The notes under the pieces: generated by a model
What the model saw: the letters and a program-made list of their open reading frames with translations, nothing else
The model's database searches: none
Told to the model about the DNA's origin: nothing
Assembly (NCBI GenBank): GCA_028716245.1
Contig: JAQUQW010000002.1
Location: 8,947 to 72,946 of the forward strand
DNA from: Candidatus Omnitrophota bacterium
GTDB taxonomy: Bacteria > Omnitrophota > Gorgyraeia > Gygaellales > Profunditerraquicolaceae
Direction of reading: 5' to 3'
DNA: 64,000 nt
Shown: one piece after another, positions 39,530 through 62,803 of the stretch
Layout: each line of letters opens with the position of its first letter
Position numbering within the stretch: position 1 is the first letter of the stretch
Position numbers and translations under genes: made by a program

Positions 39530-40771
39530 ATGGAATTTATCGCCGATTTTCACATTCACTCCAAATACTCACGGGCAACCAGCCGCGATATGGATATCAA
39601 GCATCTGGCGGAGTGGGCAAAATTAAAAGGGATCACCTTAATGGGCACAGGTGATTTTACGCACCATTTATGGCTGGAGGAATTAAAACACACATTGGAA
39701 GATTGCGGAAATGGATTATTCAAATATGCCGGCGTGGATTTTATGCTTACCTCCGAAATTAGCAGTATTTATTCTAAGGGAGGTAAAGGATATCGTATTC
39801 ATAATTTAATTTTTGCTCCTTCTTTCGCGGTCGTTGATAAAATTAATAACGCGCTTAGCCGCCGCGGAGCGAATTTATCCAGCGACGGCAGGCCAATTGT
39901 CGGAATTGCCGCCGATGAACTGGCGCGGATTGTCTTTGATATCGATGAGAACTGCATGATCGTCCCGGGCCATATTTGGACCCCCTGGTTTAGCGTGTTT
40001 GGATCGATGTCCGGTTTCGATAAGATCGAAGATTGTTTTGAAAAAGAAACTCCCAAAATATTTGCCCTGGAGACCGGTTTATCCAGCGATCCGGCGATGA
40101 ACTGGCGTTTAAGCGCGCTGGATAGATTTACGCTGATCTCTAACAGCGATTCACATTCGCCGCAGAAGATTGGCAGAGAAGCCAATGTGTTTAACTGCGA
40201 ATTAGATTATAAAACTATTCGTGAGGTTTTAAAAACCAAAGATAAAAGCAGATTTTTATATACCATTGAATTTTTCCCTGAGGAAGGTAAATACCATTTT
40301 GACGGGCACCGCCTCTGCGGTATCCGCTGGTCGCCGAAAGAAACCAGGGAGCACAATGGGAAATGTCCTAAGTGCGGCAAGCCGGTTACTGTTGGCGTGG
40401 TTAACCGGGTTGAAAAATTAGCTGACCGGCCGGAAGGATTTAAGCCTGAAAACGCCGTTCCTTTTAAAAACCTGATTCCTTTCTCCGAAATAATCGCTGA
40501 AGCAAAAGGAGTAGGGAATGCTTCTGTGGCCGTAGAGAGGGATTACCGAATTTATCTGGCTAAATTTGGCACTGAGTTTAATATTTTACTTAAGGCTTCA
40601 AAGGATGAACTGCTGAAAAGCCTGCCGCCTAAAGTTGTGGAGGGTATTTTACGCGTGCGCGCAGGTAAAGTGAATATCAAAGCAGGTTTTGACGGCGAAT
40701 ATGGCATAATTTCCATCTTTGATGATCATGATCAACAGGAGAAAAGCGAACAACAATTAAGTTTATTTTAA
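39530..40771 (+). CDS. PHP-domain protein with C-terminal zinc finger, endonuclease Q-like (TIGR00375-type)
   Basis: 413 aa. N-terminal MEFIADFHIHSKYSRATS PHP metal-binding motif and GTGDFTHH. C-terminal CGIRW...CPKCGKP zinc ribbon. Resembles the archaeal/Bacillus EndoQ architecture. Coupled 2 nt after pyrC. Confidence 0.5.
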   Translation: MEFIADFHIHSKYSRATSRDMDIKHLAEWAKLKGITLMGTGDFTHHLWLEELKHTLEDCGNGLFKYAGVDFMLTSEISSIYSKGGKGYRIHNLIFAPSFAVVDKINNALSRRGANLSSDGRPIVGIAADELARIVFDIDENCMIVPGHIWTPWFSVFGSMSGFDKIEDCFEKETPKIFALETGLSSDPAMNWRLSALDRFTLISNSDSHSPQKIGREANVFNCELDYKTIREVLKTKDKSRFLYTIEFFPEEGKYHFDGHRLCGIRWSPKETREHNGKCPKCGKPVTVGVVNRVEKLADRPEGFKPENAVPFKNLIPFSEIIAEAKGVGNASVAVERDYRIYLAKFGTEFNILLKASKDELLKSLPPKVVEGILRVRAGKVNIKAGFDGEYGIISIFDDHDQQEKSEQQLSLF

Positions 40772-45678: not shown

Positions 45679-46361
45679 ATAAGCCTCAAATCATACTTGC
45701 TTTAGATGTGGATACGATAAAAGAGGCTAAGAGTTTTGTAGATAAGCTTTATCCCAGAATAAAAATCTTTAAGGTTGGCAGCCAGCTTTTTACTGCTTAC
45801 GGGCCAAAGATTATTGAGTTAATACATAAAAAAGGCGCCGAGGTTTTTTTGGATCTTAAATACTTTGATATTCCTAATACCGTTGCTCAGGCTACAGCCG
45901 CGGCAGGACGTCTTAAAGTAAAGATGTTTACTTTGCATATTTCCGGAGGCAAAGAAATGATTGAGGCTGCCGTAGCATCAGCCAGGCATCAGGCAAAAGT
46001 ATCCGGATTAAGAAGGCCGCTGTTAATCGGAGTTACGGTTTTAACCAGCCAAAAAGCTCACCCCGCAGAAGTTTTAAAATTAGCGCGACAGGGATTAGCC
46101 TCCGGACTAGACGGAGTTGTTTGTTCGGTGCGCGAGGCAGCTGCCCTACGGAAAAAAATAAAAAATAAATTTGTAATGATTACTCCGGGGATAAGGCTTA
46201 ATGGTTCTCTTCAAGACGACCAGAAGAGGACGGCTACGGTAAAGGAAGCGGTAAAAGCCGGGAGCGATTTTTTAGTTATCGGCAGGCCGATTTTAAAAGC
46301 AGCGGACCCGCTTAAAAAGGCAAAAGAACTTTTGGGAGACTTACATGGCGCAGGAAATTAA
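45666..46361 (+). CDS. pyrF: orotidine 5'-phosphate decarboxylase
   Basis: 231 aa. ILALDV...FKVGSQLF and DLKYFDIPNT motifs. Confidence 0.8.
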   Translation: MPRLNKPQIILALDVDTIKEAKSFVDKLYPRIKIFKVGSQLFTAYGPKIIELIHKKGAEVFLDLKYFDIPNTVAQATAAAGRLKVKMFTLHISGGKEMIEAAVASARHQAKVSGLRRPLLIGVTVLTSQKAHPAEVLKLARQGLASGLDGVVCSVREAAALRKKIKNKFVMITPGIRLNGSLQDDQKRTATVKEAVKAGSDFLVIGRPILKAADPLKKAKELLGDLHGAGN

Positions 46362-46947
46362 AGATTTGATCGCAAAGATCCAGCAGGAAGGGGTAAAGGC
46401 AGCCCAAGAGCAGGCAGCCCAAATTAAAGCCCAAGCGGATTTGCAGGCCAAAGAAATAATTAGCGTGGCAAAAATTGAGGCCAAGCGGATTATTGAAAAC
46501 GCGGATGCCCAGGCAAAAAAACTTGATGCTTCCACCAACGCCTCTTTACAACAGGCCGGCCGGGATTTACTGATCAGTTTAAGGAAAGAAATCAATTCCG
46601 TCTTGGGTAACTTGATTAAGGCAGAACTTGGCCGGGCCCTGACTGCGGAAGAATTGGCCGGAATTATCGGCTCCCTGATTAAAAGCGCGCCGCTTTCTTT
46701 AAACTCCGAAATCGTTGTTTCTTTAAATGAAAAAGATAAAGAAAAATTAGAGAAGGGGTTTTTCAAACATTTAGCGCAGGAAACCAAGAAACAAATAATT
46801 TTAAAATCTACCGACGGCATTGATCGCGGATTTGTGATCAGCTTTGACGCGGGAAAATCCATCTTTGATTTTAGCGATACTGCCCTGACAGAGTATATAA
46901 CCGGTTCCTTAAAACCCGAATTGGATAAAATTTTAAAATCCGGATAA
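46345..46947 (+). CDS. atpE: V-type ATP synthase subunit E
   Basis: 200 aa. Alanine/lysine/glutamine-rich helical stalk protein at the head of the V-ATPase operon. Confidence 0.7.
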   Translation: MAQEIKDLIAKIQQEGVKAAQEQAAQIKAQADLQAKEIISVAKIEAKRIIENADAQAKKLDASTNASLQQAGRDLLISLRKEINSVLGNLIKAELGRALTAEELAGIIGSLIKSAPLSLNSEIVVSLNEKDKEKLEKGFFKHLAQETKKQIILKSTDGIDRGFVISFDAGKSIFDFSDTALTEYITGSLKPELDKILKSG

Positions 46948-47481
46948 ATGGCCTCTTATTATACATATTTGATTTCCAGCCTGCCGATACTTAATTTTTC
47001 TATAAAGATGCCTTTTAGTTTAAAGGTTTTTTTTGCTAAGTGTAAGGGTTTAATTCCGGAAACAGAAATTGAAATTTTACATAACGCCTGTTATCAAGAC
47101 ATCGATTTTTTAAATACAACAGCAGGGGGGTGTTTAAAGAAATGGGTAAATTTTGAAGTAACCCTGAGAAATGAGCTGGCTCGCGTTAGAGCCAGGGGTA
47201 AAAAGATCGATCCCGCAAAATTTATCCGGTTTCCTGACCACCCGCAATTCCATATCAGCCACGTGGCAATGGCCGCGCACCGGCACAGCGCCAATGTATT
47301 GGAAGCGGAAAAGATCCTGGACCAGGAGAGGTGGGATTTTTTAGAACAGCTGTCTTTTGGGCATTATTTTGATTTTGATTTCTTATTGATTTACGCGTTA
47401 AAGCTTAAAATCCTGGAGCGCTGGGATAAGGCCGCTAATGCGGATAAAGGGCATTTATTTGACGCGGTATTTTTAGATTAA
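46948..47481 (+). CDS. V-ATPase-operon-associated hypothetical protein (DUF2764-like; occupies the slot of subunit C/F/G in other V/A-ATPase operons)
   Basis: 177 aa. No recognisable catalytic motif. Position between E and A mirrors the Chlamydia/spirochaete operon layout as I recall it. Confidence 0.4.
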   Translation: MASYYTYLISSLPILNFSIKMPFSLKVFFAKCKGLIPETEIEILHNACYQDIDFLNTTAGGCLKKWVNFEVTLRNELARVRARGKKIDPAKFIRFPDHPQFHISHVAMAAHRHSANVLEAEKILDQERWDFLEQLSFGHYFDFDFLLIYALKLKILERWDKAANADKGHLFDAVFLD

Positions 47482-47488
47482 ATTCATT

Positions 47489-49228
47489 ATGGAAAAAAAG
47501 AGAACCGGCAGCGTTGTTAAGGTTAACGCCAACATGGTTACCGCCCAGGTTGACGGCAATATCATCCAAAATGAGGTTGCCTATATTATTCACGGGCAGG
47601 AGCGCTTAAAAGCGGAAGTTATCCGCGTACGCGCCAATCAGGCGGAGATGCAAGTTTATGAAAGTACGCAGGGTTTAAAAGTCGGCGATCTTGTAGAGTT
47701 TAGCAATGAACTTCTCTCTGTAGAGCTTGGCCCCGGTTTATTGGGCCAAATCTTTGATGGGCTGCAGAATCCCCTGCCCGCGCTGGCTCAAAAATGCGGA
47801 TTTTTCTTAAAACGCGGCGTCTATCTTGAGGCTCTCAGCGACCAGGCGCAATGGGATTTTACCCCTTTGGTAAAACCAAAAGATAAGGTCTTAGCCGGCA
47901 GCTGGCTGGGTTTTGTCCCTGAGAAATTTTTTAAACATTATATTATGGCTCCGTTTATGCTTACCGGTTCCCTGGAGGTGGTAAGCATTGCTCCGGCCGG
48001 TAAATATAATTTAAAACAGCCGATTGCCCAGCTTAGAGATTCTACCGGGCACATCCACGATGTTTTTTTACAACAGAGCTGGCCGGTAAAAATACCGATT
48101 CGTGCCTACGCGGAAAAAATAAGGCCGCATGAACCGCTGGTAACCAAAATGCGCCTGATCGATTCGCTTTTTCCGGTCAGCCGCGGAGGCACATATTGTA
48201 TTCCCGGCCCCTTTGGCGCCGGGAAAACCGTCTTACAACAGTTGACCAGCCGCCACGCGGAAGTGGACATCGTCATTATTGCCGCCTGCGGAGAACGCGC
48301 CGGAGAAGTTGTCGAAACATTAAAAACTTTTCCCGAGTTAATCGATCCGCGCACGGATAAACCGCTGATTGACCGCACGGTAATTATCTGTAATACCAGC
48401 TCGATGCCGGTTGCCGCCCGCGAATCCAGCGTCTATACCGCGGTGACCATCGCGGAATACTACCGCCAGATGGGCCTGAATGTTTTATTGCTTGCCGATT
48501 CTACTTCCCGGTGGGCCCAGGCGATGCGCGAGATGAGCGGACGCCTCGAGGAGATTCCGGGGGAAGAAGCGTTTCCGGCATACCTGGAGTCGCGGATTGC
48601 CTCTTTTTATGAACGGGCCGGGGTCGTCAGGCTTTACGGCGGCGCAACCGGTTCGGTAACCATAGGCGGCACGGTCAGCCCTGCCGGAGGAAATTTTGAG
48701 GAACCGGTTACCCAGGCAACGCTAAAAGTAGTCGGCGCTTTTCACGGGCTTTCGCGCGAACGTTCCGATGCCCGAAAATATCCGGCCATCGACCCGTTAA
48801 TCAGCTGGAGTAAATATAAGAGTATCGTTGACCCCCGGCATCAGGAAAAAGGCCGCTCGATTTTACAGCGCAGCCACGAAATCGCGCAAATGATGAAAGT
48901 TATCGGCGAAGAAGGCACTTCGTTAAATGATTATATCGAGTATTTAAAGGGGGAGTTTTTTGATTTTATTTATCTGCAGCAGAATGCCTTTGATCCGGTT
49001 GATGAGGCCACATCCCAAGAGCGGCAGATTTATTTATTCGCCTTTATTTGCGATATCCTGGACTCAGAGTATAAATTGGAAAATAAAGAAAGCGCCCTGC
49101 ATTTTTTTCAAGCCTTGCGCCAGCTTTTCCGCGGCTGGAACTCCACTGAATATAACAGCAAGGAATTTGAAGAGATCGAGGAAAAAATAGCCATATTTTT
49201 GGAAGAGAAAATAATTAAAGCCGTATAA
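47489..49228 (+). CDS. atpA: V-type ATP synthase catalytic subunit A
   Basis: 579 aa. Walker A GPFGAGKT, non-homologous insert region, DSTSRWAQA motif. Confidence 0.9.
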
Positions 49229-49230
49229 AT

Positions 49231-50526
49231 ATGCAAAAAGCCTACACTAATATTATTCAAATAGCCGGGGATGTTATTACCGTCCAGGCCCAGGGCGTGG
49301 GGTACCTGGATATCGCCCAGATTACCTGCGGCCGGAGCGTTTCTTTGGCCCAGGTTATCCGCATCGATTCGACAAAAGTATCTTTGCAGGTTTTTGCCGG
49401 CAGCCGCGGAATATCGACGCAGGATAAGGTAAGGTTCTTGGGCCATCCGATGCGCGTGGCCACCGGAGAAAATCTATTGGGCCGCATCTTTAACGGCAGC
49501 GGCCTGCCCCTGGATCGCGGGCCAGTGCTTTCTGAAAACTTAACGGCAATCGGGGCGCCTTCCGTAAACCCGGTCAGGAGAATTATTCCCAATAAAATTA
49601 TCCGCACCGGTATTCCAATGATCGATGTTTTTAATTCACTGGTAGAATCACAAAAGCTTCCGGTTTTTTCAATTGCCGGGGAGCCTTATAATGAGCTTCT
49701 GGCGCGCATTGCCATCCAGGCAGAAATAGATACGATTATTTTAGGCGGGATGGGTTTAAAATATGACGATTTTCTTTTCTTTCGGGAAACATTAAACGCC
49801 CACGGCGCCCTTTCGCGTTGCGTATTTTTTATCCACACCGCGGCTGACCCTACCGTTGAGTGTTTACTTGTGCCGGATATCAGCTTAGCCGTGGCCGAAG
49901 ATTTCGCTTTAAAAGGCAAGCGGGTATTGGTTTTATTAACCGATATGACTAACTTCGCCGATTCTTTGAAAGAAATTTCGATTACCATGGAGCAGGTTCC
50001 TTCTAACCGCGGCTATCCCGGGGATCTTTACAGCCAGCTTGCCGCCCGGTATGAAAAAGCGGTTGATTTCGAAGGGGCAGGTTCAATTACCATCCTGGCT
50101 GCCACGACAATGCCCGGAGATGATGTGACGCATCCGGTCCCGGATAATACCGGCTATATCACCGAAGGCCAATTCTACTTGAAGTCCGCGGTTATTGAGC
50201 CGTTTGGGTCATTAAGCCGCTTAAAGCAGCAGGTAAACGGTAAAACCCGCCCGGACCATCGCACGATTATGGATACGATGATCCAGCTCTTTGCCAATTA
50301 CCGGGAAACCCTGGAGAAACAAGCAATGGGGTTCCAGATGAGCGCCTGGGATAAGAAATTACTTAAATACGGTTTGCTTTTTGAAGAGAATATGATGTCG
50401 CTTAAGGTAAATATCCCTTTGGAAAAAGCCCTGGATTTAGGCTGGCAGATTTTAGCGGATTGTTTTTCTCCCGAGGAAACCGGGATAAAGCTTTCGATTA
50501 TTGAGCAGTTTTGGCCGAAAGACTAA
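49231..50526 (+). CDS. atpB: V-type ATP synthase subunit B
   Basis: 431 aa. A/B-family fold without a complete P-loop. [18 protein letters not shown] motif. Confidence 0.9.
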
Positions 50527-51143
50527 TGGCAAAAATAAAATTTACCAAAGGCGAATTAAAAAGGCAGCGCGACGCCCTAAAACAATTTCAGCGCTACCTG
50601 CCCACCTTGCAGTTAAAGAAACAGCAGTTACAGCTGGAGATCCTGCAGCAGAATTCCGTCCTGGAAGCAAAGAAACAGGCTTTGTCCAAAAAAAGGCAGG
50701 CAATTGATCTTTGGTCCGGTTTGCTTGCAGACCCGCTGGTAGATTTGAAAACATATTTAAAGCCGGAAAAAATCATTACCCACCCTAAAAATATCGCTGG
50801 TACGGATATCCCCGTATTTGACGGGGTGGAATTTGCCGCGCCGGATTACGATTTATTTCTTATGCCTCTGTGGCTTGATTTTGCGGTTGAGGCCTTCAGG
50901 GAAATTTTTATTTTAAATAAAGAGGTAGCGCTAGCTGAGGAAAGCATTGCTATCCTAAGGCATGATCTGCGCATCACTACGCAAAGAGTCAATCTTTTTG
51001 AGAAAGTAAAGATTCCACTTGCCGAGGAAAATATCCGCCTGATTAAGATTTATATCGGGGACCAGATGGCTAACGCCGTAGGCCGCAGTAAAATTGCCAA
51101 GAAAAAGATCGAAGAAGCGGTTTTTGCGGGAGGACTAGTATGA
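50511..51143 (+). CDS. atpD: V-type ATP synthase subunit D
   Basis: 210 aa. Coiled-coil central stalk ([33 protein letters not shown]). Confidence 0.8.
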
Positions 51144-52906
51144 TTGTCCCGATGAAAAAAGCGACCGTAGTTACCCAGGCTAAAGACAGCCTGAGCGGGT
51201 TAAGTAAATTACGTTCTTTGGGAGTTTTACATGTTGAACATACGCAAATTCCCAAGGGCAAGGATATTGTTATCTTAACTGAAGAGATTTCCTTGATCGA
51301 TCAGGCTTTAAGTATTTTGTCCGGAGTAAAAATTCAACCCCAATATGTTCCCAAAGATCAAGAGGCAGCTGACGGGCAATTTACCATCCGCCATATCATC
51401 GATTTATATAAACGTAAAGACCAGTTAGCCGAGTATTTGACCTCCCTTTCTGTGCACATAAAGCAGTATGAAGAATGGGGTGATTTTGACCCGCAGGATT
51501 TTGCGGATTTAGCCAAAAATAATATCTTCGCCGGGCTTTATCAGGTACCACTCAAACAATTAAGGCAAATACCAAACGATATCGTCGTCAATAAATTATC
51601 GATTAAAGGGGGAATTGCCAATTGCCTGATTATTTCGGATAAGAAAATAGATCTTGGCTTTAAAGAAATTCCCCTACCTGCGACGAGCTTAGCGCAGATG
51701 TATGCGCGCAGAGCGCATGATCTTCAGGCAATCCAGCATATTGAAAAGCAATTGGCCGAACAGTTTAGCTACCGGCTGAGTTTAAATAAAATCAGGAGCA
51801 GTTTACAGAAAAAATTAGAGTTTCAGGAAGCCCTTGCCGGAATGGGCCAGGCAGAGGAGCTGGTTTTTATCAGCGGTTATATTCCTTTTGATAGCCTGGA
51901 GAGGTTAGTGCATCAGGCAAAACAAGAACAATGGGCTCTGCTTGTTGAGGAACCGGCAGATGAAGACAATGTCCCGGTTCTGCTGCGTAATCCGGCCTGG
52001 ATTACCATCATCAGCCCGGTATTTAAGTTTCTTGAAATATTGCCCGGTTACCGTGAGCTGGATATTAGTTTGTGCTTCCTCATTTTTTTTAGTATTTTCT
52101 TTGGCATGTTGATTGGCGATGCCGGATACGGCCTGGCCTATTTTCTGATCACCTTCTTTTTGCACCGGCAGGCCAGAAAAAATAAGAAAAATACCGGCAG
52201 TTTTTTTCTCTTTTACATCCTTAGTTTTTGCGCTATCATATGGGGGGTCTGCACGGGCACGTTCTTTGGACATGAATGGGTTTTAAAAGCAGGGTATAAA
52301 CCCTTGATCCCTTCGCTTAACGATGAAAAAACACTGCAGAGATTTTGTTTTTTTCTCGGAGCCACGCATCTGTCGATTGCCCACATCTGGCGCGCAATAC
52401 TTAAAGCTCCGGCTTTAGGCTTGATCGCGGATCTTGGCTGGGCCTGTATCTTATGGGCCTGTTTTTTTATCGCCAAGGTGCTTATCCTGGGAGATAGTTT
52501 TCCGTTTTTTGGCAACTGGTTGCTGATTACCGGGATTATGCTGGTTATAATATTCACCAATCCGCAGAAAAATATCCTAAAAGGCATTGGTTCAGGCTTA
52601 GGCACATTGGCGTTAAGCTTGATGAATAATTTTACCGACGTGGTTTCATATATCCGTCTTTTTGCGGTAGGTTTGGCTGGGGTAGCTATTGCCGATGCTT
52701 TTAACGCTATGGCTTCTTCTGTGGGAAACGCAAGCGCAGTTTCTTTAATTTTGGCGGCTTTTATTGTTTTGGTTGGCCATAGCCTCGGTATTATGTTGGG
52801 CCCGGTGGGAGTATTAGTGCACGGAGTAAGGTTGAATGTGCTGGAATTTTCAGGCCATGCCAATATTTCCTGGAGCGGCCGAAATTATAAACCTTTAAGA
52901 GAATAG
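51140..52906 (+). CDS. atpI: V-type ATP synthase subunit I (a)
   Basis: 588 aa. Soluble N-terminal half, polytopic C-terminal half with the conserved Arg-containing helix (VSYIRLFAVGLAG). Confidence 0.75.
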   Translation: MIVPMKKATVVTQAKDSLSGLSKLRSLGVLHVEHTQIPKGKDIVILTEEISLIDQALSILSGVKIQPQYVPKDQEAADGQFTIRHIIDLYKRKDQLAEYLTSLSVHIKQYEEWGDFDPQDFADLAKNNIFAGLYQVPLKQLRQIPNDIVVNKLSIKGGIANCLIISDKKIDLGFKEIPLPATSLAQMYARRAHDLQAIQHIEKQLAEQFSYRLSLNKIRSSLQKKLEFQEALAGMGQAEELVFISGYIPFDSLERLVHQAKQEQWALLVEEPADEDNVPVLLRNPAWITIISPVFKFLEILPGYRELDISLCFLIFFSIFFGMLIGDAGYGLAYFLITFFLHRQARKNKKNTGSFFLFYILSFCAIIWGVCTGTFFGHEWVLKAGYKPLIPSLNDEKTLQRFCFFLGATHLSIAHIWRAILKAPALGLIADLGWACILWACFFIAKVLILGDSFPFFGNWLLITGIMLVIIFTNPQKNILKGIGSGLGTLALSLMNNFTDVVSYIRLFAVGLAGVAIADAFNAMASSVGNASAVSLILAAFIVLVGHSLGIMLGPVGVLVHGVRLNVLEFSGHANISWSGRNYKPLRE

Positions 52907-52921
52907 AGGGGGAGTGTATTT

Positions 52922-53380
52922 ATGGAAAACAACATGTTAATGCAGTTTAAGGATTTGGGCGCGATTCTGGTGCTTGCGCTTTCCGCGGTGGGTTCCGGAT
53001 GGGGGGCAGGGATTGCCGGAATGGCGGCCATCGGCGCCTGGAAAAAGAACTTCGCGCAGAATAAAGCCGCTTCGTTTATGCTGGTAGTTTTTGTGGCCGC
53101 TCCGCTTACCCAGACGGTTTACGGGATGATTGTTATGCGCCAATTAATGGCAATTGCCAACAAAGGGCAATACCTTTGGAGCATCGGGGCATTTGCCGGT
53201 TTAGCTATCGGACTTTCCGCTTTATGGCAGGGTAAATGCGCGGCCTGCGCCTGCGACGCCATGGGTGAGACAGACAAGGGTTTTGGCAATTATCTGGTTG
53301 TCCTGGGAATGACTGAAACCGTGGCTTTACTGGTTATGGCATTTACCTTAATGCTTTTGGGTATAGTTTCCGGAGCCTAA
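52922..53380 (+). CDS. atpK: V-type ATP synthase proteolipid subunit K (c)
   Basis: 152 aa. Four-helix proteolipid, Gly/Ala-rich helices, conserved acidic residue (MTETVAL). Confidence 0.8.
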   Translation: MENNMLMQFKDLGAILVLALSAVGSGWGAGIAGMAAIGAWKKNFAQNKAASFMLVVFVAAPLTQTVYGMIVMRQLMAIANKGQYLWSIGAFAGLAIGLSALWQGKCAACACDAMGETDKGFGNYLVVLGMTETVALLVMAFTLMLLGIVSGA

Positions 53381-53386
53381 ATTTAC

Positions 53387-53465
53387 GGGCGATTAGCTCA
53401 GTTGGTTAGAGCATCTGCTTTACACGCAGAGGGTCAGGGGTTCAAGTCCTCTATCGCCCACCATT
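53387..53465 (+). tRNA. tRNA-Val (anticodon TAC), CCA encoded
   Basis: GGGCGATTAGCTCAGTTGGTTAGAGCATCTGCTTTACACGCAGAGGGTCAGGGGTTCAAGTCCTCTATCGCCCACCA. Confidence 0.85.
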
Positions 53466-53526
53466 TATAATTAAAAACCTGTTGCAAACTACAGTATTAT
53501 AGGTTAGAATTTAGCCTCTTATATTT

Positions 53527-53605
53527 GGGGTCGTAGCTTAGCCTGGCTTAAAGCGCCTCCCTGTCACGGAGGAGATCGCGAGTCCGAATCTCGTCGGCCC
53601 CGCCA
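53527..53605 (+). tRNA. tRNA-Asp (anticodon GTC), CCA encoded
   Basis: GGGGTCGTAGCTTAGCCTGGCTTAAAGCGCCTCCCTGTCACGGAGGAGATCGCGAGTCCGAATCTCGTCGGCCCCGCCA. T-loop reads TCCGAAT (C at position 55). Confidence 0.8.
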
Positions 53606-53609
53606 GTCG

Positions 53610-53660
53610 ACAAGACCCTGTTTCCCGCTTGAATAGGAAACAGGGTCTTGTTTTTCTTTA
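53610..53660 (+). terminator. strong rho-independent terminator after the tRNA pair
   Basis: ACAAGACCCTGTTTCC-cgcttgaata-GGAAACAGGGTCTTGT followed by TTTTTCTTT. Confidence 0.75.
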
Positions 53661-53736
53661 TCTTGAGTTTTTCTGCCGGCAATGATATTATAGCCTTAAG
53701 TTTTTAGCAGATAGAGTGTTGTAAAATTTTAGGTAA

Positions 53737-55251
53737 ATGTTGAAGAAACTATACCTTGCGTTAATTTTAGCCTCAAGTTTTATTTCTTACGCCTACGGTT
53801 ATGAGCTGCTTGATACCGAGCAGTTAGGGCTGGCATTAAATACTTATCTGCGTACGGATTTAGTAAGTTTGAGAAATGTAGTGAACCTGGATAGCCATAA
53901 TCAGGATGACCGGACTACTTATTTAGGTATTGATTACAGTTTTGCTCTTAGTGCGGATTTTAAGGACTCCGGTAACAAGTTTTATCTTAAGCTTGAACGT
54001 AACGGGCCATATGATTACAGCGCCCCGCTTTTTATTCATAATACGCTGATTAACTCCGGCGGCAGAGTAGAGAAGTATCGTAATGCGGAATTGCTCCCGC
54101 AGATTGAGGAACTTTGGGTTGATTCCAAACTCTTTGATAGCTTTGGGGTTAAGGCAGGTCTATATATTTATGAAGTAGGCAATGGTTTTAGCCTTAATGG
54201 TAGCTATGAAAATTACGGGCTGACCTTATATAAACAAACACAAGATATTTTTTGGCGCCTTTACTATTGCCGGCCGGATTCAGTTTACAAATATCGCCTA
54301 GGCCCGCATATTAAACAGGAAAAAGAGCAGGGCCAGAAATATGAACCCAATGCGGCTAATTTTTTTGCTACCGATGCCAAGATTACAGCAGGTAAGCAGA
54401 CATTTTGGCCATATGTGGGGATGTTGGCAGATTATACCTCGAGCGCAAAAAGGGATAATTTATTTGCCGCTTCCATAAAAAAGGATTTGTTGGGGACCTT
54501 TGGCACTGCCTGGGAATATAGGGCCGAAGATTTCACTCTAAAATTAGAAGCCGCGCATAATTTCGGGTATGCCCAAAGCCAGGATGATGCCTATAAAGAT
54601 ATTGCTCATGCCGGATACATGTTTTACTCCGGTTTAGATTATGTCCTGGGAAAATTTGTTCCGGAAGTGCAATTTTTGGTTTGTTCCGGGAATAAGGCTA
54701 CCCCGGAAATGGCAGAGAACGGTGATACCAAATACGTCGGAGGGAAAAACCGCGCCTTTAGTTATTTTTCTCCCACAAATTTTAATTTAGGGGATACGAT
54801 AAGCAGCAGCAATGTGGATATGCTTCCCATTGTGGCTATGGGCGGAGGTTATGGTCTAAATTACGGAGTGCCGCGGCCAAAGACGTTTTCCTCGGGAGAT
54901 TTTGAAAATTTGATTATGCCTTCGGTAGGTTTTGATTATAATTTTACCGAGAAGCTCTGCACGAGTTTATATGGGTATTATTTGATGGCTTTTAACCGTC
55001 CCGTGGGGACTTTAGATAACCAGGGAAAATATCTCTCCCGAGATTTAGGGTATGAAGCAGATTTATTTATTGATTATAAAGCCAGCCAACATTTGACCGT
55101 GGGTTTTTTAGGCGGCTATTTTGTCCCGGGCAAGTTTTATAAAGAAAGGCGCGATGATCTGGACGGCAGTTTATTCAGCCCTTTTCTGCGCGGGGACGGC
55201 CAGGCTAATAATGCTTATCAGATTAAATTTTACGCGGAGCTAAGATTTTAA
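53737..55251 (+). CDS. putative outer-membrane beta-barrel protein (porin/exporter-like)
   Basis: 504 aa. Signal peptide. Alternating amphipathic Tyr/Gly-rich segments. C-terminus ...YAELRF ends in Phe as in OMP85-targeted beta-barrels. Confidence 0.45.
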   Translation: MLKKLYLALILASSFISYAYGYELLDTEQLGLALNTYLRTDLVSLRNVVNLDSHNQDDRTTYLGIDYSFALSADFKDSGNKFYLKLERNGPYDYSAPLFIHNTLINSGGRVEKYRNAELLPQIEELWVDSKLFDSFGVKAGLYIYEVGNGFSLNGSYENYGLTLYKQTQDIFWRLYYCRPDSVYKYRLGPHIKQEKEQGQKYEPNAANFFATDAKITAGKQTFWPYVGMLADYTSSAKRDNLFAASIKKDLLGTFGTAWEYRAEDFTLKLEAAHNFGYAQSQDDAYKDIAHAGYMFYSGLDYVLGKFVPEVQFLVCSGNKATPEMAENGDTKYVGGKNRAFSYFSPTNFNLGDTISSSNVDMLPIVAMGGGYGLNYGVPRPKTFSSGDFENLIMPSVGFDYNFTEKLCTSLYGYYLMAFNRPVGTLDNQGKYLSRDLGYEADLFIDYKASQHLTVGFLGGYFVPGKFYKERRDDLDGSLFSPFLRGDGQANNAYQIKFYAELRF

Positions 55252-55263
55252 AAAGGAGTTAAG

Positions 55264-55584
55264 ATGGCGACAATCGATGATTTTAGAAAGTTAGAATTAA
55301 GGATAGCGGAAATAAAAGAGGTTAATGACCATCCGAACGCGGACAAATTATTGATTTTAACCGTGGATTTAGGTGACAGGCAAAAGCAGGTGGTTGCCGG
55401 GATCAAGGCTTACTATTCAAAAGAAGAGTTAATCGGTAAGCAGGTAGTCTTAGTTGATAATTTGGATCCGGTAGTTTTACGCGGAGTAGAAAGCCAGGGG
55501 ATGATTTTGGCCGGTTCAGATGAAAACACGCTGGCAGTAGTTAACCCGGATAAAAAATTGAAGCTGGGAAGTATTGTAAAATGA
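55264..55584 (+). CDS. standalone tRNA-binding OB-fold protein (tRNA_bind / EMAP-like; CsaA/Trbp111 family)
   Basis: 106 aa. LELRIAEIKEVNDHPNADKLLILTVDLGD...QVVAGIKAYY...GKQVVLVDNLDPVVLRGVESQGMILA matches the tRNA_bind domain consensus seen in MetRS/PheT C- or N-terminal appendages. Confidence 0.75.
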   Translation: MATIDDFRKLELRIAEIKEVNDHPNADKLLILTVDLGDRQKQVVAGIKAYYSKEELIGKQVVLVDNLDPVVLRGVESQGMILAGSDENTLAVVNPDKKLKLGSIVK

Positions 55585-56090
55585 TCAAACAGTTCGTTCC
55601 GCAGGAGTTTTGTATCAAATGCCGGGGGTGCTGCCGGTTTAAAGAAGCAAATTCCGTATGGAGCCCCTGCCTTCTGGACGAGGAGATCCAGGAGCTGTTG
55701 GATAAAAGAGGAATTCCCGCCGCCTCTATTTCTATTGACCGCCGCTTGCATCTTATCGCCAATCCTGATGGCGCGGATTTTATCTGCCCGTTTTTAGGCA
55801 GCGCGGATAACAAATGCAAAATCTACGATATCCGGCCGTTTGAATGCCAGCTTTATCCCTTTTTGATTAATTTACGCAGAGGAAAAGTACTCTTGACCGT
55901 GGATTTAAATTGCCCGTATGTTTATGAAAAGATAAATAGCCGGGAGGCCAAAGACTATATTATTTATCTGACCAGTTATCTTAATTCTCCGCAAATGCTA
56001 AAAATGCTCAAAGATAACCCTCAGATTATCCAGGCCTATGAAGAGGTAAGAGAGGTTGCCGAAATAAACTTACCCCATGAAACTAAATAA
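55581..56090 (+). CDS. YkgJ-family Cys-cluster (putative zinc/iron-chelating, UPF0153) protein
   Basis: 169 aa. CIKCRGCC (CxxCxxCC) near the N-terminus plus downstream Cys (CPFL...CKIY...CQLYPF...CPY). 4-nt overlap with the upstream gene. Confidence 0.6.
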   Translation: MIKQFVPQEFCIKCRGCCRFKEANSVWSPCLLDEEIQELLDKRGIPAASISIDRRLHLIANPDGADFICPFLGSADNKCKIYDIRPFECQLYPFLINLRRGKVLLTVDLNCPYVYEKINSREAKDYIIYLTSYLNSPQMLKMLKDNPQIIQAYEEVREVAEINLPHETK

Positions 56091-56973
56091 ACTAACTTTA
56101 AAAAATCATAAGCTGTTCAGCCAATACCTTGCTTTGGAGCCGCATGAGCTGGCAGCTTACTCTTTTGCCAATATCTACATTTGGCGTTCTCTCTATGATA
56201 TCGGCTGGGCAGTGATTGAAAATAGCCTCTGCGTATTTTTTCGCGATCAGATCGGCTGTTTTATGTATTTGGGGCCGCTGGCAAAAGAAAAGAGGCCGCG
56301 CGCCATAAAAGAGAGTTTTGCAATCATGGATAGTATTAATAAAAACAAAGATATCAGCCGCATTGAAAATATTGAAGAGAGGAATTTAGAGTATTATCGG
56401 GCCTTAGGATATCTTTGCCACGAGAAATATCCGGACTACCTTTGTTTAAAGAACGATTTGGCGTTTCTGCGGGGGAATAAATTTAAATCCCAGCGCGCCT
56501 CGTATAATTTTTTCATCAAACACTATCATTTCGAATGGGCAAAGTTGAAATTGATGGATAGGGATGATTGCTTAAGCTTGTTTAATTCCTGGGCGGAATT
56601 GCGCAAAACACAATCTTGCGACGATCTTTATTGCGGCATGCTTGAGGATAACCGTAAGGTAATCAAAGAGGCGTTTGCTAATTATAAACCGCTGGGTTTA
56701 GAAGGCATCTGCGTAAGGATAGATAAAAAAATCAAAGCCTTTAGTTTTGGCTACCGGTTGAATAATGAGACATTTTGCGTGCTTTATGAAATAACCGACC
56801 TTTCCATTAAAGGATTGGCGCAGTTTATTTTTCGCCAATTTTGCCGGGAATTAAAAGATTATAAGTATATTAATATCATGGACGATTCAGGTTTAGAGAA
56901 TTTACGTAAAACGAAGTTATCTTATAAACCTAAGTGTTTAATTCCAGCCTATATTGTAACTGGCGATGCCTGA
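56077..56973 (+). CDS. DUF2156-like protein (lysyl-phosphatidylglycerol synthase C-terminal-domain-like, aminoacyl-tRNA-dependent transferase fold)
   Basis: 298 aa. Soluble. The segment YSFANIYIWRSLYDIGWAVIENSLCVF and overall size/composition resemble standalone DUF2156 proteins. Assignment from memory, not from a search. Confidence 0.4.
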   Translation: MKLNKLTLKNHKLFSQYLALEPHELAAYSFANIYIWRSLYDIGWAVIENSLCVFFRDQIGCFMYLGPLAKEKRPRAIKESFAIMDSINKNKDISRIENIEERNLEYYRALGYLCHEKYPDYLCLKNDLAFLRGNKFKSQRASYNFFIKHYHFEWAKLKLMDRDDCLSLFNSWAELRKTQSCDDLYCGMLEDNRKVIKEAFANYKPLGLEGICVRIDKKIKAFSFGYRLNNETFCVLYEITDLSIKGLAQFIFRQFCRELKDYKYINIMDDSGLENLRKTKLSYKPKCLIPAYIVTGDA

Positions 56974-57553
56974 AGATATCGATCAAGTGGAATTTACCAT
57001 ATTTGATACTGAGACTACCGGTTTATATCCTGATGCCGGAGACCGCATTGTCGAGCTGGCGGCCTTACGGGTCAAAGGCAAACAGAGATTAGCCGTATTC
57101 GATTCTTTAGTTAACCCCGGCCGGCCGATTTCTCCGGGTGCTTTTGCCGTAAATAAAATAACTCCGGAGATGTTAAAAGACGCTTTGTCCATTGAGACAG
57201 TCATGCCTAAGTTTTTAGATTTTATTGCCGGCAGCTGTCTTTGCTCCTACAATGCGGGATTTGATCTAAGTTTCTTAAATAATGAGCTTAAGTTGATCGG
57301 CTCCGGCGCGATCAATAATATCGTTGTTTTTGACGTGCTGACCATGGCTAAAAGGCTTATGCCGGCTTTACCCCGCTACGCGCTTTGGTTTGTGGCAAAG
57401 GAACTGGGGATAGAATCAAAACAAGAGCACCGGGCCTTTTCCGACGTGGAGATGACCTGGGAGGTTTTTACCAAGCTTAAAATTATTTGCGCGCAAAAAG
57501 GTATTACTAGTTTTGCCGGCCTCTTTAAATTAGGGACAGCGACTATTTTTTAG
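56966..57553 (+). CDS. DEDDh 3'-5' exonuclease (DnaQ/RNase T-like epsilon-type domain)
   Basis: 195 aa. Exo I FDTETTG, Exo II, Exo III HRAFSDVEMT motifs. 8-nt overlap with the upstream gene. Confidence 0.75.
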   Translation: MPEDIDQVEFTIFDTETTGLYPDAGDRIVELAALRVKGKQRLAVFDSLVNPGRPISPGAFAVNKITPEMLKDALSIETVMPKFLDFIAGSCLCSYNAGFDLSFLNNELKLIGSGAINNIVVFDVLTMAKRLMPALPRYALWFVAKELGIESKQEHRAFSDVEMTWEVFTKLKIICAQKGITSFAGLFKLGTATIF

Positions 57554-57590
57554 GTAACCTACCCGGTAAAAAATAGTCGCTGTCCCTATT
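57532..57590. terminator. 21-bp perfect-stem hairpin terminator closing the four-gene operon (potentially bidirectional)
   Basis: AGGGACAGCGACTATTTTTTA-ggtaacctacccgg-TAAAAAATAGTCGCTGTCCCT then ATTT. Overlaps the last codons of the exonuclease gene. Confidence 0.7.
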
Positions 57591-57675
57591 TAATACATTG
57601 CATTAGCCACCATTTGTTATAAAATATGATTCGCGAGTTTTTTAAAGGACGATCTTCCTGGTTTAGGAGAGCCAA

Positions 57676-59616
57676 ATGTTGTTTAAAAACAAAGTAAAGC
57701 CGGCCATAGAGCAGCGTAAATACCTGCGTTTGGATACGGTGTTTCCGGTGCAGTTCCGCCTGGAGGGCCTGGAAGGCGAAACTTTTCTTTCCAGCTGGCT
57801 GCAGGGTTTTACCAATAATATCAGCCGCGGCGGCCTTTGCCTTTTCATCAATAATATCGGCCCTGACCTGCTTAAGCTGGTTAAAGAAAAGAAATGTAAA
57901 TTATCGTTAGAGATCGATATCCCCATCAGCAAAAAACCAATTCCCGCCCAAGCCAGCATTGTTTGGTTCAAAGAAACCTCCGAAGGTAAGCGCAAATGCC
58001 AGATCGGGTTAAATTATGACCGGATATCGGCCAAGCAGAATAATGAATTAATGCGCTATGCCTGGTTAAAGAAGCTTTTTATCCCGGTAGCTTTATCGGC
58101 AATGGTGGTGATTACCTTAATTTTAGGTATCAATAGCTATTTAAATTTTAACTTAACCCGTAGCAATAAGCTGCTGGTTGAAAAGCTGTCCAGCGTATTA
58201 AAAGATTCCCGCCTGGCCGAACAAAAAATAGGGGAAATCGTTGCGCAGCGGCAGGATCTTCAGGTAAAACTGAAAGCTTTAGAAGAGCGGATTAAATCTG
58301 TTGAGTCGCAAAAAGCCCAAACCGAAGCAAGCAATCTAGGTCAGATTAAACAACTTAATGAATCGATTGCCGCCTTAACCGCAGAAAAACTTGTTTTAGA
58401 AACCAAATTAACCGCTGCCCAGCGCACTGAGAATGTCGCGGTTAAAGAATTATCCCGGTTAGATGAAAAGAAAATAGTACTGGAGAAAGCTAATTTTGAC
58501 AAGATGTACCAGTGGCTTAAGGTACATCAAAATAACCGCACCGGTTTGGTCTCGAGTTTTGAAGGAGATCAGGATATTGCTAACTGGTCATTTACTTATG
58601 ACTTGGCCCTGCTCATCCAGGCCTATACGTATTTTGGAGATTTTGACCGCGCCAAGAAAATTCTGGAATTTTTTGCGCATAAAGCCAAAAGAGAAAATGG
58701 CTGGTTTCTCAATGCTTATTATGTCAACGACGGCGGCCCGGCGGAATTTATCATGCACAGCGGGCCCAATCTCTGGGTAGGCCTTGCTATTATGCAATAT
58801 ATGCAAGGCAGCAAAGATAAGAGTTATCTGGGCTTAGCCGAGAGTATCGCCCAAACGATTATTGACCTGCAGAATGCGGATGCTGACGGCGGTATCCGCG
58901 GCGGCCCGGAGGTAGAGTGGTATTCTACGGAACATAATCTTGATGCTTACGCGTTTTTTAATATGCTGGCTAAGGTTACCGGGAGGGAAAAATATGCGCA
59001 AGCCAGCCAAAAGACGATAACTTGGCTTCTTGAGCATACTTATGACCGGCCGGATTTACCGGTTAAGCGCGGTAAAGGAGATTCTACCATTGCTACAGAT
59101 ACCTATGCCTGGTCGATCGCCGCGATCGGCCCGCAAAAACTTCAAGAGCTGGGAATGGATCCGGACAAGATCATGGAGTTTGTCGAAGAGAACTGCGGGG
59201 TTGAGGCTAATTTCCTGCGGTTAAATGGCCAGAGCGTAAAGATAAAAGGATTTGATTTTGCTCCGCAGCTGCATACAGCCCGCGGCGGCGTGGTTTCTTC
59301 GGAGTGGACTGCCCAGATGGTGGTGTCTTATAAAATCATGGAAGATTTTTATTCTAAAGGCGGCGCCGGTATGCCTAAAGCGGCTGATTATGGGAAAAAA
59401 GCGCAGATGTATCTAAATGAATTAGGCAACATGGTTATCTCCAGTTCTTCTCCCTCCGGCCAAGGGGAAGGCTGTTTGCCTTATGCTACTCAAGAGCATG
59501 TTGATACCGGGCACGGCTGGATGACGCCTAAAGGCAGCCATACCGGATCAGTTTCCGGTACGGCATACACTCTTTTTGCCTATTACGGTTTTAACCCTTT
59601 AGAGCTTAAAGAATGA
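57676..59616 (+). CDS. PilZ-domain (c-di-GMP receptor) - TM - coiled-coil - (alpha/alpha)6-toroid glycoside-hydrolase-like fusion protein
   Basis: 646 aa. N-terminal PilZ motifs RKYLR and N-I-S-R-G-G. One TM helix (LFIPVALSAMVVITLILGI). About 130 aa heptad coiled coil. C-terminal ~350 aa with six-hairpin-glycosidase-like repeats (TGLVSSFEG...WSFTYDLALLIQAY; NLWVGLAIMQY; TDTYAWSIAAIG). Confidence 0.55.
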   Translation: MLFKNKVKPAIEQRKYLRLDTVFPVQFRLEGLEGETFLSSWLQGFTNNISRGGLCLFINNIGPDLLKLVKEKKCKLSLEIDIPISKKPIPAQASIVWFKETSEGKRKCQIGLNYDRISAKQNNELMRYAWLKKLFIPVALSAMVVITLILGINSYLNFNLTRSNKLLVEKLSSVLKDSRLAEQKIGEIVAQRQDLQVKLKALEERIKSVESQKAQTEASNLGQIKQLNESIAALTAEKLVLETKLTAAQRTENVAVKELSRLDEKKIVLEKANFDKMYQWLKVHQNNRTGLVSSFEGDQDIANWSFTYDLALLIQAYTYFGDFDRAKKILEFFAHKAKRENGWFLNAYYVNDGGPAEFIMHSGPNLWVGLAIMQYMQGSKDKSYLGLAESIAQTIIDLQNADADGGIRGGPEVEWYSTEHNLDAYAFFNMLAKVTGREKYAQASQKTITWLLEHTYDRPDLPVKRGKGDSTIATDTYAWSIAAIGPQKLQELGMDPDKIMEFVEENCGVEANFLRLNGQSVKIKGFDFAPQLHTARGGVVSSEWTAQMVVSYKIMEDFYSKGGAGMPKAADYGKKAQMYLNELGNMVISSSSPSGQGEGCLPYATQEHVDTGHGWMTPKGSHTGSVSGTAYTLFAYYGFNPLELKE

Positions 59617-61438: not shown

Positions 61439-62803
61439 ATGGACAAAAGAATAATAATTGTACTTATTATAATAATTTTTTTTGCGGCATTATTCGCCTA
61501 CACTAGACAAAACATTACCAAAATAGGTAGTTTAAACAATATGCAAAATTTTACATATATCGGGCCAAATGGAAATCTTTCTAGTGTTAAAGTTGCCACT
61601 TTGTATGAAAAAGTGACGGACAAAGAATTTATCGGCGGGAGAAGCTTGAACGAAACAGTCAAAGTGCTGAAAGAAACGCGCGCGGATATGATTTTCCGCG
61701 GGTTTTGGATTTGGAATGCTCCTGTACCGGAATCTTCGGATAATATTCCTCCGGAAATAATTGATTTGGCAGCTAAGCGCTTGAATATAAAACCGGAGCA
61801 AGTTCCGGAATTTATCGAAAAAAGCGGTCTTTCTTATAAAGAGCTTGAAAATACCATATCCGCAATAAAAAAAGAAATGCCCGGAATTATTTTCGTAGGC
61901 GCACTCCCCGCCCAGTCTGTCGGAAGGATCGAAATTGATCCGATAACCGGCAAGGTTTATAACAATGAAGATACCTGGGACATGGCTTTTGATCCGCAAA
62001 AGTGGAATATAAACTATACATACAAAGGCAAGCTATTAACCAAGGATGAATTTCAGAAATTAGAAGCGACAAATAATCAGGAAACATTCAAAAACGGCTA
62101 TGATTATCGCCAAGCATATGGTTATTTTCCCGATATTACAAATCCGGATTTTCAGGAGCTTTTCTTGAGCTGGGCAAAAAAGCAGATAGATTCAGGTGCT
62201 GACGCTATATGGATTGATTTGTTGTATTCGCAGGCGAATGTCCTCAAAGGCATGACCGGTGACCTAAACCATCATGCAGTCAGAGAATCCTATGACGAGG
62301 CATCAAAAATGGTAGACCAGATACATAAATATGGAGAATCAAAAGGAAAGCATGTCTATGTTGGAACATGGTCTGAACCCGTCATTGATTATCAGGGAGT
62401 TTTGCCAAAACTTGATTTTGTGACCACAACGCCTTCATCCGAAGAAATATATTATGGAAAATTTGACGAAGCAAGATGGAGCCGGATAAATATGGGCGTG
62501 AAAAATAAATTCGGCAATATCCCCCATTTCGCTTTTATTGATTGGGGCGGAAGACCCGATGCACCGATAGATGTTTTTAGCCAGCGCCTAAGCGTAAACG
62601 AACAAAAAGAATTCCTAAAAAAAGCGGATGAATTTTTTTCGAACAAAAACATAATTTTTATCTATCCGGTCCATGGCGCCGACTTCTGGGGTGGCGTAAA
62701 AACGCGCGCTTTTGGAAAATTTACCAAATATGATTCGCTTGCGCCGGAATTTGATACTTATGATATAATTAAAAAGCTTGCGAATAAAAAAGCATTAAAA
62801 TAA
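61439..62803 (+). CDS. hypothetical N-terminally anchored extracytoplasmic protein (possible TIM-barrel glycosidase-like)
   Basis: 454 aa. N-terminal TM/signal anchor IIIVLIIIIFFAALFAY. No motif I can name. Segment GADAIWIDLLYSQ is reminiscent of glycoside hydrolase barrels. Confidence 0.4.
   Translation: MDKRIIIVLIIIIFFAALFAYTRQNITKIGSLNNMQNFTYIGPNGNLSSVKVATLYEKVTDKEFIGGRSLNETVKVLKETRADMIFRGFWIWNAPVPESSDNIPPEIIDLAAKRLNIKPEQVPEFIEKSGLSYKELENTISAIKKEMPGIIFVGALPAQSVGRIEIDPITGKVYNNEDTWDMAFDPQKWNINYTYKGKLLTKDEFQKLEATNNQETFKNGYDYRQAYGYFPDITNPDFQELFLSWAKKQIDSGADAIWIDLLYSQANVLKGMTGDLNHHAVRESYDEASKMVDQIHKYGESKGKHVYVGTWSEPVIDYQGVLPKLDFVTTTPSSEEIYYGKFDEARWSRINMGVKNKFGNIPHFAFIDWGGRPDAPIDVFSQRLSVNEQKEFLKKADEFFSNKNIIFIYPVHGADFWGGVKTRAFGKFTKYDSLAPEFDTYDIIKKLANKKALK

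Follow-up and report, generated by a model that had tools for sequence, protein, structure and literature searches.

Organization of the gene cluster

We describe here a cluster of four small genes in a stretch of 64,000 nucleotides (nt; hereafter the window) from contig JAQUQW010000002.1 of a Candidatus Omnitrophota bacterium, two of which are predicted to encode a single transferase of the DUF2156 family. All four lie on the forward strand. Gene 1 (55264..55584; 106 amino acids, aa) would encode a free-standing tRNA-binding OB-fold protein of the Trbp111 or methionyl-tRNA synthetase (MetRS) C-terminal domain type. Gene 2 (55581..56090; 169 aa) carries a CxxCxxCC (YkgJ-type) domain with eight invariant cysteines and is the putative second subunit of the transferase, whose catalytic core would be provided by gene 3 (56077..56973; 298 aa), a predicted free-standing DUF2156 (tandem-GNAT) acyl- or aminoacyl-transferase. 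Gene 4 (56966..57553; 195 aa) encodes a DEDDh 3'-5' exonuclease of the DnaQ/PolC-exo type, in a short form lacking a WYL domain. The reading frames overlap by 4 nt (genes 1 and 2), 14 nt (genes 2 and 3) and 8 nt (genes 3 and 4), exactly as read in an initial annotation of the sequence, and all four Pfam assignments made there (tRNA_bind, CxxCxxCC, LPG_synthase_C/DUF2156 and RNase_T) hold in a Pfam search. No paralogues of genes 1-4 were found in the window.

Genes 2 and 3 as two halves of a predicted enzyme

Gene 2 matches the Pfam family CxxCxxCC (PF03692) with an E-value of 1.7e-8 and 35.5 bits (cutoff 23), and an hhalign comparison with Escherichia coli YkgJ gave E 5e-5 at a probability of 67%. 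Its eight cysteines, C11-x2-C14-x2-C17-C18 together with C69, C79, C89 and C111, are invariant in 44 sequences, and the same eight are invariant across forms in which genes 2 and 3 are split and forms in which they are fused. They are predicted to make up a [4Fe-4S] or zinc site. No solved structure of a YkgJ-type domain was found for comparison, and NCBIfam has no model for either gene 2 or gene 3.

The fused forms came to light in an exhaustive HMMER search, which returned 3,537 cluster representatives (at 50% identity), many of the best being 440-545 aa long. Nine out of ten long relatives that were scanned proved to be fusions of CxxCxxCC and LPG_synthase_C, and a gene-2-like N-terminus, homologous over the full length of gene 2 (E 1e-36 to 1e-7), is present in 58 of the 149 representatives with sequence. 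The fused form is found in many Omnitrophota lineages as well as in some metagenome-assembled genomes (MAGs) of Nitrospirota. By the Rosetta-stone argument, such a fusion indicates that the Cys protein is integral to the transferase, and genes 2 and 3 are therefore taken, on this sequence evidence, to encode the two halves of one enzyme. The initial annotation had pictured the YkgJ protein as a loose metal or redox partner, a view that does not survive its fusion to DUF2156 in many relatives. A link of gene 2 to the phage protein DpdM was rejected, since tblastn against phages matched only unannotated faecal contigs (E about 1e-5).

The gene 3 product matches Pfam PF09924 (LPG_synthase_C/DUF2156) over profile positions 10-297 of 298 (E 2e-33, 116.2 bits, cutoff 27.5), shows 100% identity to a Candidatus Omnitrophota MAG protein, and has more than 1,200 close homologues that bear Omnitrophota names. 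Its sole solved relative in sequence searches is BT_3689 (PDB entry 2HQY), at E 9e-31 with the single sequence and 1e-48 with the family profile, and these comparisons place gene 3 in the free-standing BT_3689 branch of the family, not in the MprF branch. NCBI names such proteins 'phosphatidylglycerol lysyltransferase domain-containing protein', but an MprF-type lipid synthase was discarded as a candidate, there being neither a membrane domain nor a sequence match to MprF.

The fold was examined on an AF2 (AlphaFold2) model of a fused relative, P0156, with a predicted local distance difference test (pLDDT) score of 90.7 and a disordered linker, to which the window protein is tied through the alignment with 2HQY. 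When matched to PDB entries, this model supports the DUF2156/GNAT-like fold that had been expected for the third gene. The top match is 2HQY, with a template modelling (TM) score of 0.85 and 26% identity, followed by MprF C-terminal domains, the aminoacyl-tRNA-dependent peptide synthases Sba18/Sbb17 and FemX, while tandem GNATs that use acetyl-CoA rank below the aminoacyl-tRNA transferases. A basic helix between the two GNAT domains, G133-N-K135-F-K137-S-Q-R140-x3-N144, is invariant or nearly so, with G133, K137, R140 and N144 strictly invariant, and it maps to helix 319-334 in the P0156 model. In DUF2156 proteins, the alpha(+) helix, which is positively charged and separates GNAT I from GNAT II, serves in the binding of aminoacyl-tRNA (PMC7334510).

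The tRNA-binding protein and the exonuclease

Gene 1 matches Pfam tRNA_bind (PF01588) at E 7e-31 and 106.6 bits (cutoff 27). With 129.7 bits it also passes the trusted cutoff (116.65) of NCBIfam TIGR00399 (metG_C_term), curated by NCBI as 'methionine--tRNA ligase subunit beta'. Matches in the PDB extend from end to end of the protein (1MKH, the Pyrococcus MetRS C-domain, 2.6e-32; Trbp111, 1PYB, 5e-26; 8VTZ, 5.6e-26), the best solved relatives being the Pyrococcus MetRS C-domain, Trbp111 and the Aquifex MetRS beta subunit; CsaA chaperones are also among the matches. By sequence, gene 1 is a bona fide Trbp111/MetRS-C domain. There is no MetRS gene in the window. The window does have pheT (9773-11803, reverse strand), encoding a phenylalanyl-tRNA synthetase (PheRS) beta subunit; a domain scan bore out the earlier remark that it has no tRNA_bind (B2) domain of its own. 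The PheT of a distant Omnitrophota relative (L085:529-2562; our loci are numbered with the prefix L) likewise lacks this domain, whose absence may be a trait of the whole phylum; both proteins (676-677 aa) have the B3_4, B5, core and FDX-ACB domains.

Gene 4 matches Pfam RNase_T (PF00929) at E 2.5e-36 and 126 bits, and NCBIfam TIGR00573 (dnaq family) at 99.5 bits (cutoff 71.5). Its PDB matches are the PolC exonuclease (2P1J, 5e-25), DnaQ, epsilon and Cas2-DEDDh. The DEDDh motifs are intact, with DTETTG at residue 14 (D14/E16), FD at residue 100 (D100) and HxxxxD at residue 155 (H155/D160). A C-terminal WYL domain of ~80 aa (Pfam E 5.5e-9) is carried by 57 of 77 orthologues, which are 270-304 aa long (e.g. 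L014:8890-9711); the window protein belongs to the minority short form. Neither RNase T nor RNase D appeared among the best 25 of 26 NCBIfam matches (E <= 1e-3) or among the PDB matches (E <= 1e-5). The analogy to these tRNA 3'-end trimmers drawn in the initial annotation therefore has no specific basis, PolC/DnaQ proofreaders being the closest relatives instead, and an RNase T-like tRNA trimmer was rejected because all the top matches were PolC, DnaQ, epsilon or Cas2-DEDDh. In a PADLOC search, genes 1-3 and the fusion were without matches and gene 4 had just generic DEDDh and WYL ones, and genes 1-3 had no PHROG matches; on these grounds a known anti-phage defence system was rejected.

Conservation of the cluster

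The co-occurrence of the four genes in other genomes could be followed in two samples, 80 Omnitrophota loci of the split form from GTDB species genomes (gene 3 identity 84-53%) and 80 metagenome loci of the fused form, and was borne out in both. Counts of gene presence are limited to loci whose flank allows a call. Among split loci, gene 2 was present in all 80, gene 1 lay directly upstream in 73 of 74, and gene 4 was downstream in 75 of 78. Fused genes had gene 1 immediately upstream in 52 of 59 cases and gene 4 immediately downstream in 42 of 58. The overlaps are kept as well: that of 4 nt recurs in 56 of 70 loci and that of 14 nt in 49 of 80, and genes 3 and 4 overlap in 53 of 77. An identical gene order was seen amid unrelated flanks in L086, L087, L090 and L092.

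Genes 1-4 are rarely split, while insertions (V-ATPase operon, outer-membrane protein (OMP) gene, hyp genes) repeatedly part the cluster from its neighbours. The OMP gene, for example, accompanies the cluster in 31 of 36 close relatives as against 6 of 25 divergent ones; in the divergent half, V-ATPase K was found in 7 of 23 loci and a PilZ protein in 18 of 36, often shifted by several kb.

Transcription unit and genomic context

The OMP gene of the window (53737..55251, forward strand), which is outside the conserved core, encodes a 504-aa outer-membrane beta-barrel-like protein whose Pfam match to Alginate_exp is below threshold. The intergenic gap that the initial annotation had placed after this gene amounts to just 12 nt (55252-55263) with an AGGAG ribosome-binding site inside. 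A five-gene transcription unit is therefore more likely in the window, the OMP gene probably being co-transcribed with genes 1-4. The real intergenic region (53381-53736) is 5' of the OMP gene. It houses, all on the forward strand, tRNA-Val(TAC) (53387..53463; ARAGORN and Rfam tRNA, 71 bits), tRNA-Asp(GTC) (53527..53605; ARAGORN and Rfam) and a promoter-like site (53663..53691; TTGAGT-17-TATTAT with an upstream TG), a weak candidate for the operon promoter from a consensus scan. The two tRNA genes are given here as upstream context, with no membership in the module implied. They were the only features returned by an Rfam scan of positions 52000-59000; a riboswitch or T-box, which might have pointed to a particular amino acid, was not among the matches.

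The same tRNA-Val(TAC)-tRNA-Asp(GTC) pair was seen on the same strand upstream of gene 1 within 2.3 kb in 41 of 59 genome loci, and in 48 of the 59 within the fetched flank. It also occurs upstream of about 17 fused-form metagenome loci, with tRNA-Leu(GAG) there in 5 more. In loci without the OMP gene, tRNA-Asp lies 160-480 nt upstream of gene 1. This recurrence could reflect co-transcription with the tRNA genes or merely old synteny.

A hairpin spans the stop codon of gene 4 (57528..57591, forward strand) and is probably a terminator or a 3' stabiliser. Its arms (57528-57552 and 57567-57591) are 25 nt long with one mismatch, and the perfect core is 22 bp (21 bp in the initial annotation, which had rightly noted a hairpin closing the cluster) with a 14-nt loop; the left arm covers the final codons of gene 4 as well as its stop. 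The folding energy is -38.4 kcal/mol, with z = -8.2 against shuffles. In other loci, gene 4 is followed in the same position by hairpins that are equally strong but unrelated in sequence. We therefore take the hairpin of the window to be an ordinary lineage-specific element, and the idea of a special element was rejected.

Downstream, a gene for a chorismate-binding (PabB/TrpE-like) protein and, behind it, one for a class IV aminotransferase (PabC-like) were found directly after gene 4 or, in loci that lack gene 4, next in line to the fused transferase gene. This pair occurs in 26 of 41 fused loci and in 19 split loci (L049, L061, L068, L085, L087, L092, L094-L170). In the lineage of the window its place is taken by a PilZ-GH76-like gene (57676-59616), the 646-aa product of which combines a PilZ domain at the N-terminus with a coiled-coil-like middle part and a C-terminal region weakly resembling GH76; this gene is downstream in close relatives too and displaced by hypF/hypD-like genes in others. 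Upstream, pyrD-pyrF stand a few genes from gene 1 in distant relatives (L086, L090). The pyrK/pyrD/pyrF genes of the window end at 46361, and a V-type ATPase operon (46345-53380) and the OMP gene come between them and the cluster; both seem to be lineage-specific insertions that interrupted an older gene order.

In the Nitrospira-type loci (L088:569-4806 and L089:613-4868), a lone fused CxxCxxCC-DUF2156 gene is divergent from a conserved set that encodes a 533-aa protein (no Pfam match), a glutaredoxin-like protein, a lysine-2,3-aminomutase-like radical SAM protein and a dCTP-deaminase-like protein. Elsewhere in the window, two open reading frames, 39530-40771 (413 aa) and 61439-62803 (454 aa), have no Pfam match at E <= 1e-5.

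A possible aminoacyl-tRNA-dependent transferase

We tentatively propose that the two-domain Cys8-DUF2156 enzyme, served by gene 1, is an aminoacyl-tRNA-dependent transferase, which we regard as quite possible. Around the observed gene order, overlaps, fusion, domain and fold assignments and motif conservation, we infer the formation of a physical complex, aminoacyl-tRNA as the donor, and any catalytic role that the Cys domain may have. In Omnitrophota, the gene 2/3 enzyme would be translationally coupled to the Trbp111/MetRS-C-type gene 1, whose product would dock the body of the tRNA, and the DUF2156 domain would take the aminoacyl group off aminoacyl-tRNA and pass it to an acceptor. This arrangement would parallel that of ErdS, where a fused aminoacyl-tRNA synthetase (aaRS) feeds a DUF2156 domain. 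Binding or chemical tailoring of the acceptor or the product may fall to the Cys8 domain. Gene 4, whose product usually bears a WYL domain for binding nucleic acid or a ligand, would be a frequent but dispensable accessory. The proposal is favoured by the invariant basic helix between the GNAT domains and by the aminoacyl-tRNA transferases that, in the modelled fold, appear as structural neighbours after 2HQY. It is also favoured by the tight coupling of a tRNA-binding gene to the enzyme genes and by the tRNA genes upstream in most loci. Precedents exist in the free-standing DUF2156 protein ErgS, which uses aminoacyl-tRNA made in trans (PMC8913301), and in ErdS, where DUF2156 is joined to a tRNA-handling module (PMC7334510, PMC8913301).

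A number of observations weigh against this proposal. MprF chains in the PDB went undetected by both sequence and profile searches with gene 3; of the likeness to MprF drawn in the initial annotation, the fold and the Pfam family hold, whereas the sequence branch is that of BT_3689. Gene 3 keeps E238 and a GNAT-like G246-x-A248 loop at the motif A pyrophosphate-loop position, which would suit CoA. Acetyl-CoA has been reported in the active site of 2HQY, and in Helicobacter pylori the deletion of HPB8_1270, a DUF2156 protein with a part in the lysine acetylation of RNase J, lowers this modification at four lysines (PMC10700544). An aminoacyl-tRNA-dependent module, as first suggested for this locus, stays plausible but is weakened by these reports on the BT_3689 branch. 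Furthermore, tRNA_bind folds can bind ligands other than tRNA, as the CsaA chaperones among the matches illustrate, and a DNA-type exonuclease has no obvious place in aminoacyl transfer; none of the models considered here explains gene 4. Moreover, about one fused locus in four has no gene 4. Neither gene 1 nor gene 4 accompanies the fused gene in Nitrospira-type loci or the split pair in L093, and a homologue in Wallbacteria is solitary. Thus, the gene 2/3 enzyme would be the core, and genes 1 and 4 accessories typical of Omnitrophota. Finally, there is a deep background of synteny, with pyrD-pyrF upstream and pabB-pabC-like genes downstream even in distant relatives. Adjacency alone therefore overstates functional coupling; stronger arguments come from the fusion, from the overlapping reading frames and from how seldom insertions fall inside the cluster.

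The evidence for CoA lends itself to the main alternative, which we consider rather unlikely but serious, namely that the gene 2/3 product is an acetyl- or acyl-CoA-dependent acyltransferase, as proposed for BT_3689 and HPB8_1270. It would act on a protein or, in view of the tRNA-binding partner, on a tRNA base or the amino group of aminoacyl-tRNA; in the latter two cases tRNA would serve as substrate instead of donor. Beyond the acetyl-CoA and RNase J reports and the conserved E238 and G246-x-A248 loop, this alternative would fit with 2HQY being by far the closest solved relative, both in the profile search and in TM score (0.85 versus about 0.6-0.65 for MprF), and GNATs that acetylate tRNA or aminoacyl-tRNA do exist (TmcA, AtaT, ItaT). 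However, the H. pylori support is indirect, consisting of a partial loss of acetylation in a mutant without enzymology, the structural neighbours that follow 2HQY are aminoacyl-tRNA transferases, with acetyl-CoA tandem GNATs scoring worse, and the basic helix typical of aminoacyl-tRNA users is invariant. The scattered absence of genes 1 and 4, together with the long-distance synteny of the flanking pyr and pab genes, would fit a further scenario in which only genes 2 and 3 cooperate. Gene 1 would then be a housekeeping trans-acting aaRS appendage, either a MetRS beta subunit as in Aquifex or a stand-in for the tRNA_bind domain missing from PheT, and gene 4 the cell's own DnaQ-type exonuclease for proofreading or repair, both being there by inherited gene order and co-regulation with translation genes and sharing no pathway. 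The annotation of gene 1 as a MetRS beta subunit, with MetRS C-domains as best PDB matches, the absence of tRNA_bind from PheT in both the window and L085, and the PolC, DnaQ and epsilon matches of gene 4 are consistent with such a scenario. We nevertheless judge it unlikely, as insertions rarely split genes 1-4 and overlaps of 4-14 nt are kept in most loci, and as a WYL domain, present on most gene 4 orthologues, is atypical of a replicative epsilon subunit; nor is a clamp-binding or alpha-binding tail evident in gene 4 on reading its sequence.

The last explanation is a pathway of nucleic acid hypermodification. Here DUF2156 would attach an amino acid to a base of tRNA or DNA, in the manner of Mom from phage Mu, which draws on Gly-tRNA. 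The amine so formed would be tailored by the FliB/DpdM-like Fe-S domain and the modified strand processed by the DEDDh-WYL nuclease, with the Trbp111-like protein holding the tRNA. Mom is a precedent within the GNAT superfamily for the use of aminoacyl-tRNA in modifying DNA (PMC13219725). Two characterized YkgJ-type relatives are amine N-methyltransferases, one of them acting on a DNA base (PMC8598068; bioRxiv 10.1101/2023.04.13.536721), and tRNA-Val/tRNA-Asp recur upstream of a module that itself contains a nucleic-acid exonuclease and a tRNA-binding protein. If this were the case, a hypermodification system would be universal in a bacterial phylum. The argument proceeds wholly by analogy, though: gene 2 is a weak match to E. 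coli YkgJ and is likened to FliB and DpdM by description only, and the PADLOC and PHROG searches gave no matches for genes 1-3, so that we hold this explanation to be highly improbable.

Significance of the module

Full-text literature searches returned no description of a CxxCxxCC-DUF2156 fusion or operon, in keeping with the initial impression that this combination is not a described system. What is new is a DUF2156 transferase whose partnership with a Cys8 domain is obligatory, joined in Omnitrophota by a dedicated tRNA-binding protein and a DEDDh(-WYL) exonuclease, to which we would ascribe the functions discussed above. The enzyme defines a large and well-bounded DUF2156 sub-family, conserved throughout Omnitrophota and also found in some Nitrospirota MAGs. 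The main known diversion of aminoacyl-tRNA from translation to the modification of lipids runs through DUF2156 enzymes, with MprF in bacteria and ErdS and ErgS in fungi. To our knowledge, the free-standing bacterial branch has no established substrate, and we know of only two YkgJ-type relatives that have been characterized, FliB and DpdM. The module could settle whether this branch uses aminoacyl-tRNA or acyl-CoA, as well as the role of the YkgJ-type domain. Its four proteins are small, soluble and experimentally tractable, and the natural fusions can guide their reconstitution. Since Omnitrophota are uncultured, an enzyme conserved throughout the phylum is also a lead to their unusual biology.

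Comparison with known systems

Like the gene 3 product, BT_3689 (2HQY, from Bacteroides thetaiotaomicron) and HPB8_1270 (from H. pylori) are soluble, free-standing tandem-GNAT proteins of ~300 aa, and they share with it G133, K137, R140, N144, E238, G246, N266 and K280. They differ in having no known CxxCxxCC partner or fusion and no tRNA_bind or exonuclease neighbour, and have been reported as acetyl-CoA-binding or acetylation-linked rather than tRNA-dependent (PMC10700544). With the C-terminal domain of MprF and other aminoacyl-phosphatidylglycerol synthases (aaPGS), gene 3 shares PF09924, the double-GNAT fold (TM about 0.6-0.65) and the basic connecting helix. Unlike MprF, it has no membrane flippase domain, its identity is just 11-16%, its long relatives carry CxxCxxCC instead of a membrane domain, and nothing points to a lipid acceptor. 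LysX, a fusion of LysRS and MprF, is another DUF2156 aminoacyl-tRNA transferase. As in the present module, DUF2156 is combined in ErdS (AspRS-DUF2156) and ErgS with a tRNA-handling part that supplies or holds aminoacyl-tRNA (PMC7334510, PMC8913301). In contrast to ErdS, LysX and ErgS, that part is here a small non-catalytic Trbp111-like protein encoded by a separate gene, and there is an extra Cys8 domain.

Gene 2 shares with the COG0727-type proteins YkgJ, FliB and DpdM an N-terminal CxxCxxCC motif and further cysteines, eight in total as in FliB, but has an extra helical region of ~60 aa and is dedicated to a DUF2156 partner. FliB is an oxygen-sensitive [4Fe-4S], S-adenosylmethionine (SAM)-dependent N-methyltransferase of primary amines with eight conserved cysteines (PMC8598068), and DpdM methylates preQ1 in DNA (bioRxiv 10.1101/2023.04.13.536721); a [4Fe-4S] cluster and SAM-dependent methyl transfer are properties of FliB that gene 2 might have by likeness only. 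Gene 1 is set apart from Trbp111, MetRS C-domains and the Aquifex MetRS beta subunit by being consistently encoded with, and overlapping, a transferase gene rather than an aaRS gene. In the same way, gene 4 has the DEDDh motifs of the DnaQ and PolC exonuclease domains and of Cas2-DEDDh, but unlike these it is a stand-alone protein, usually fused to WYL, and is translationally coupled to the transferase.

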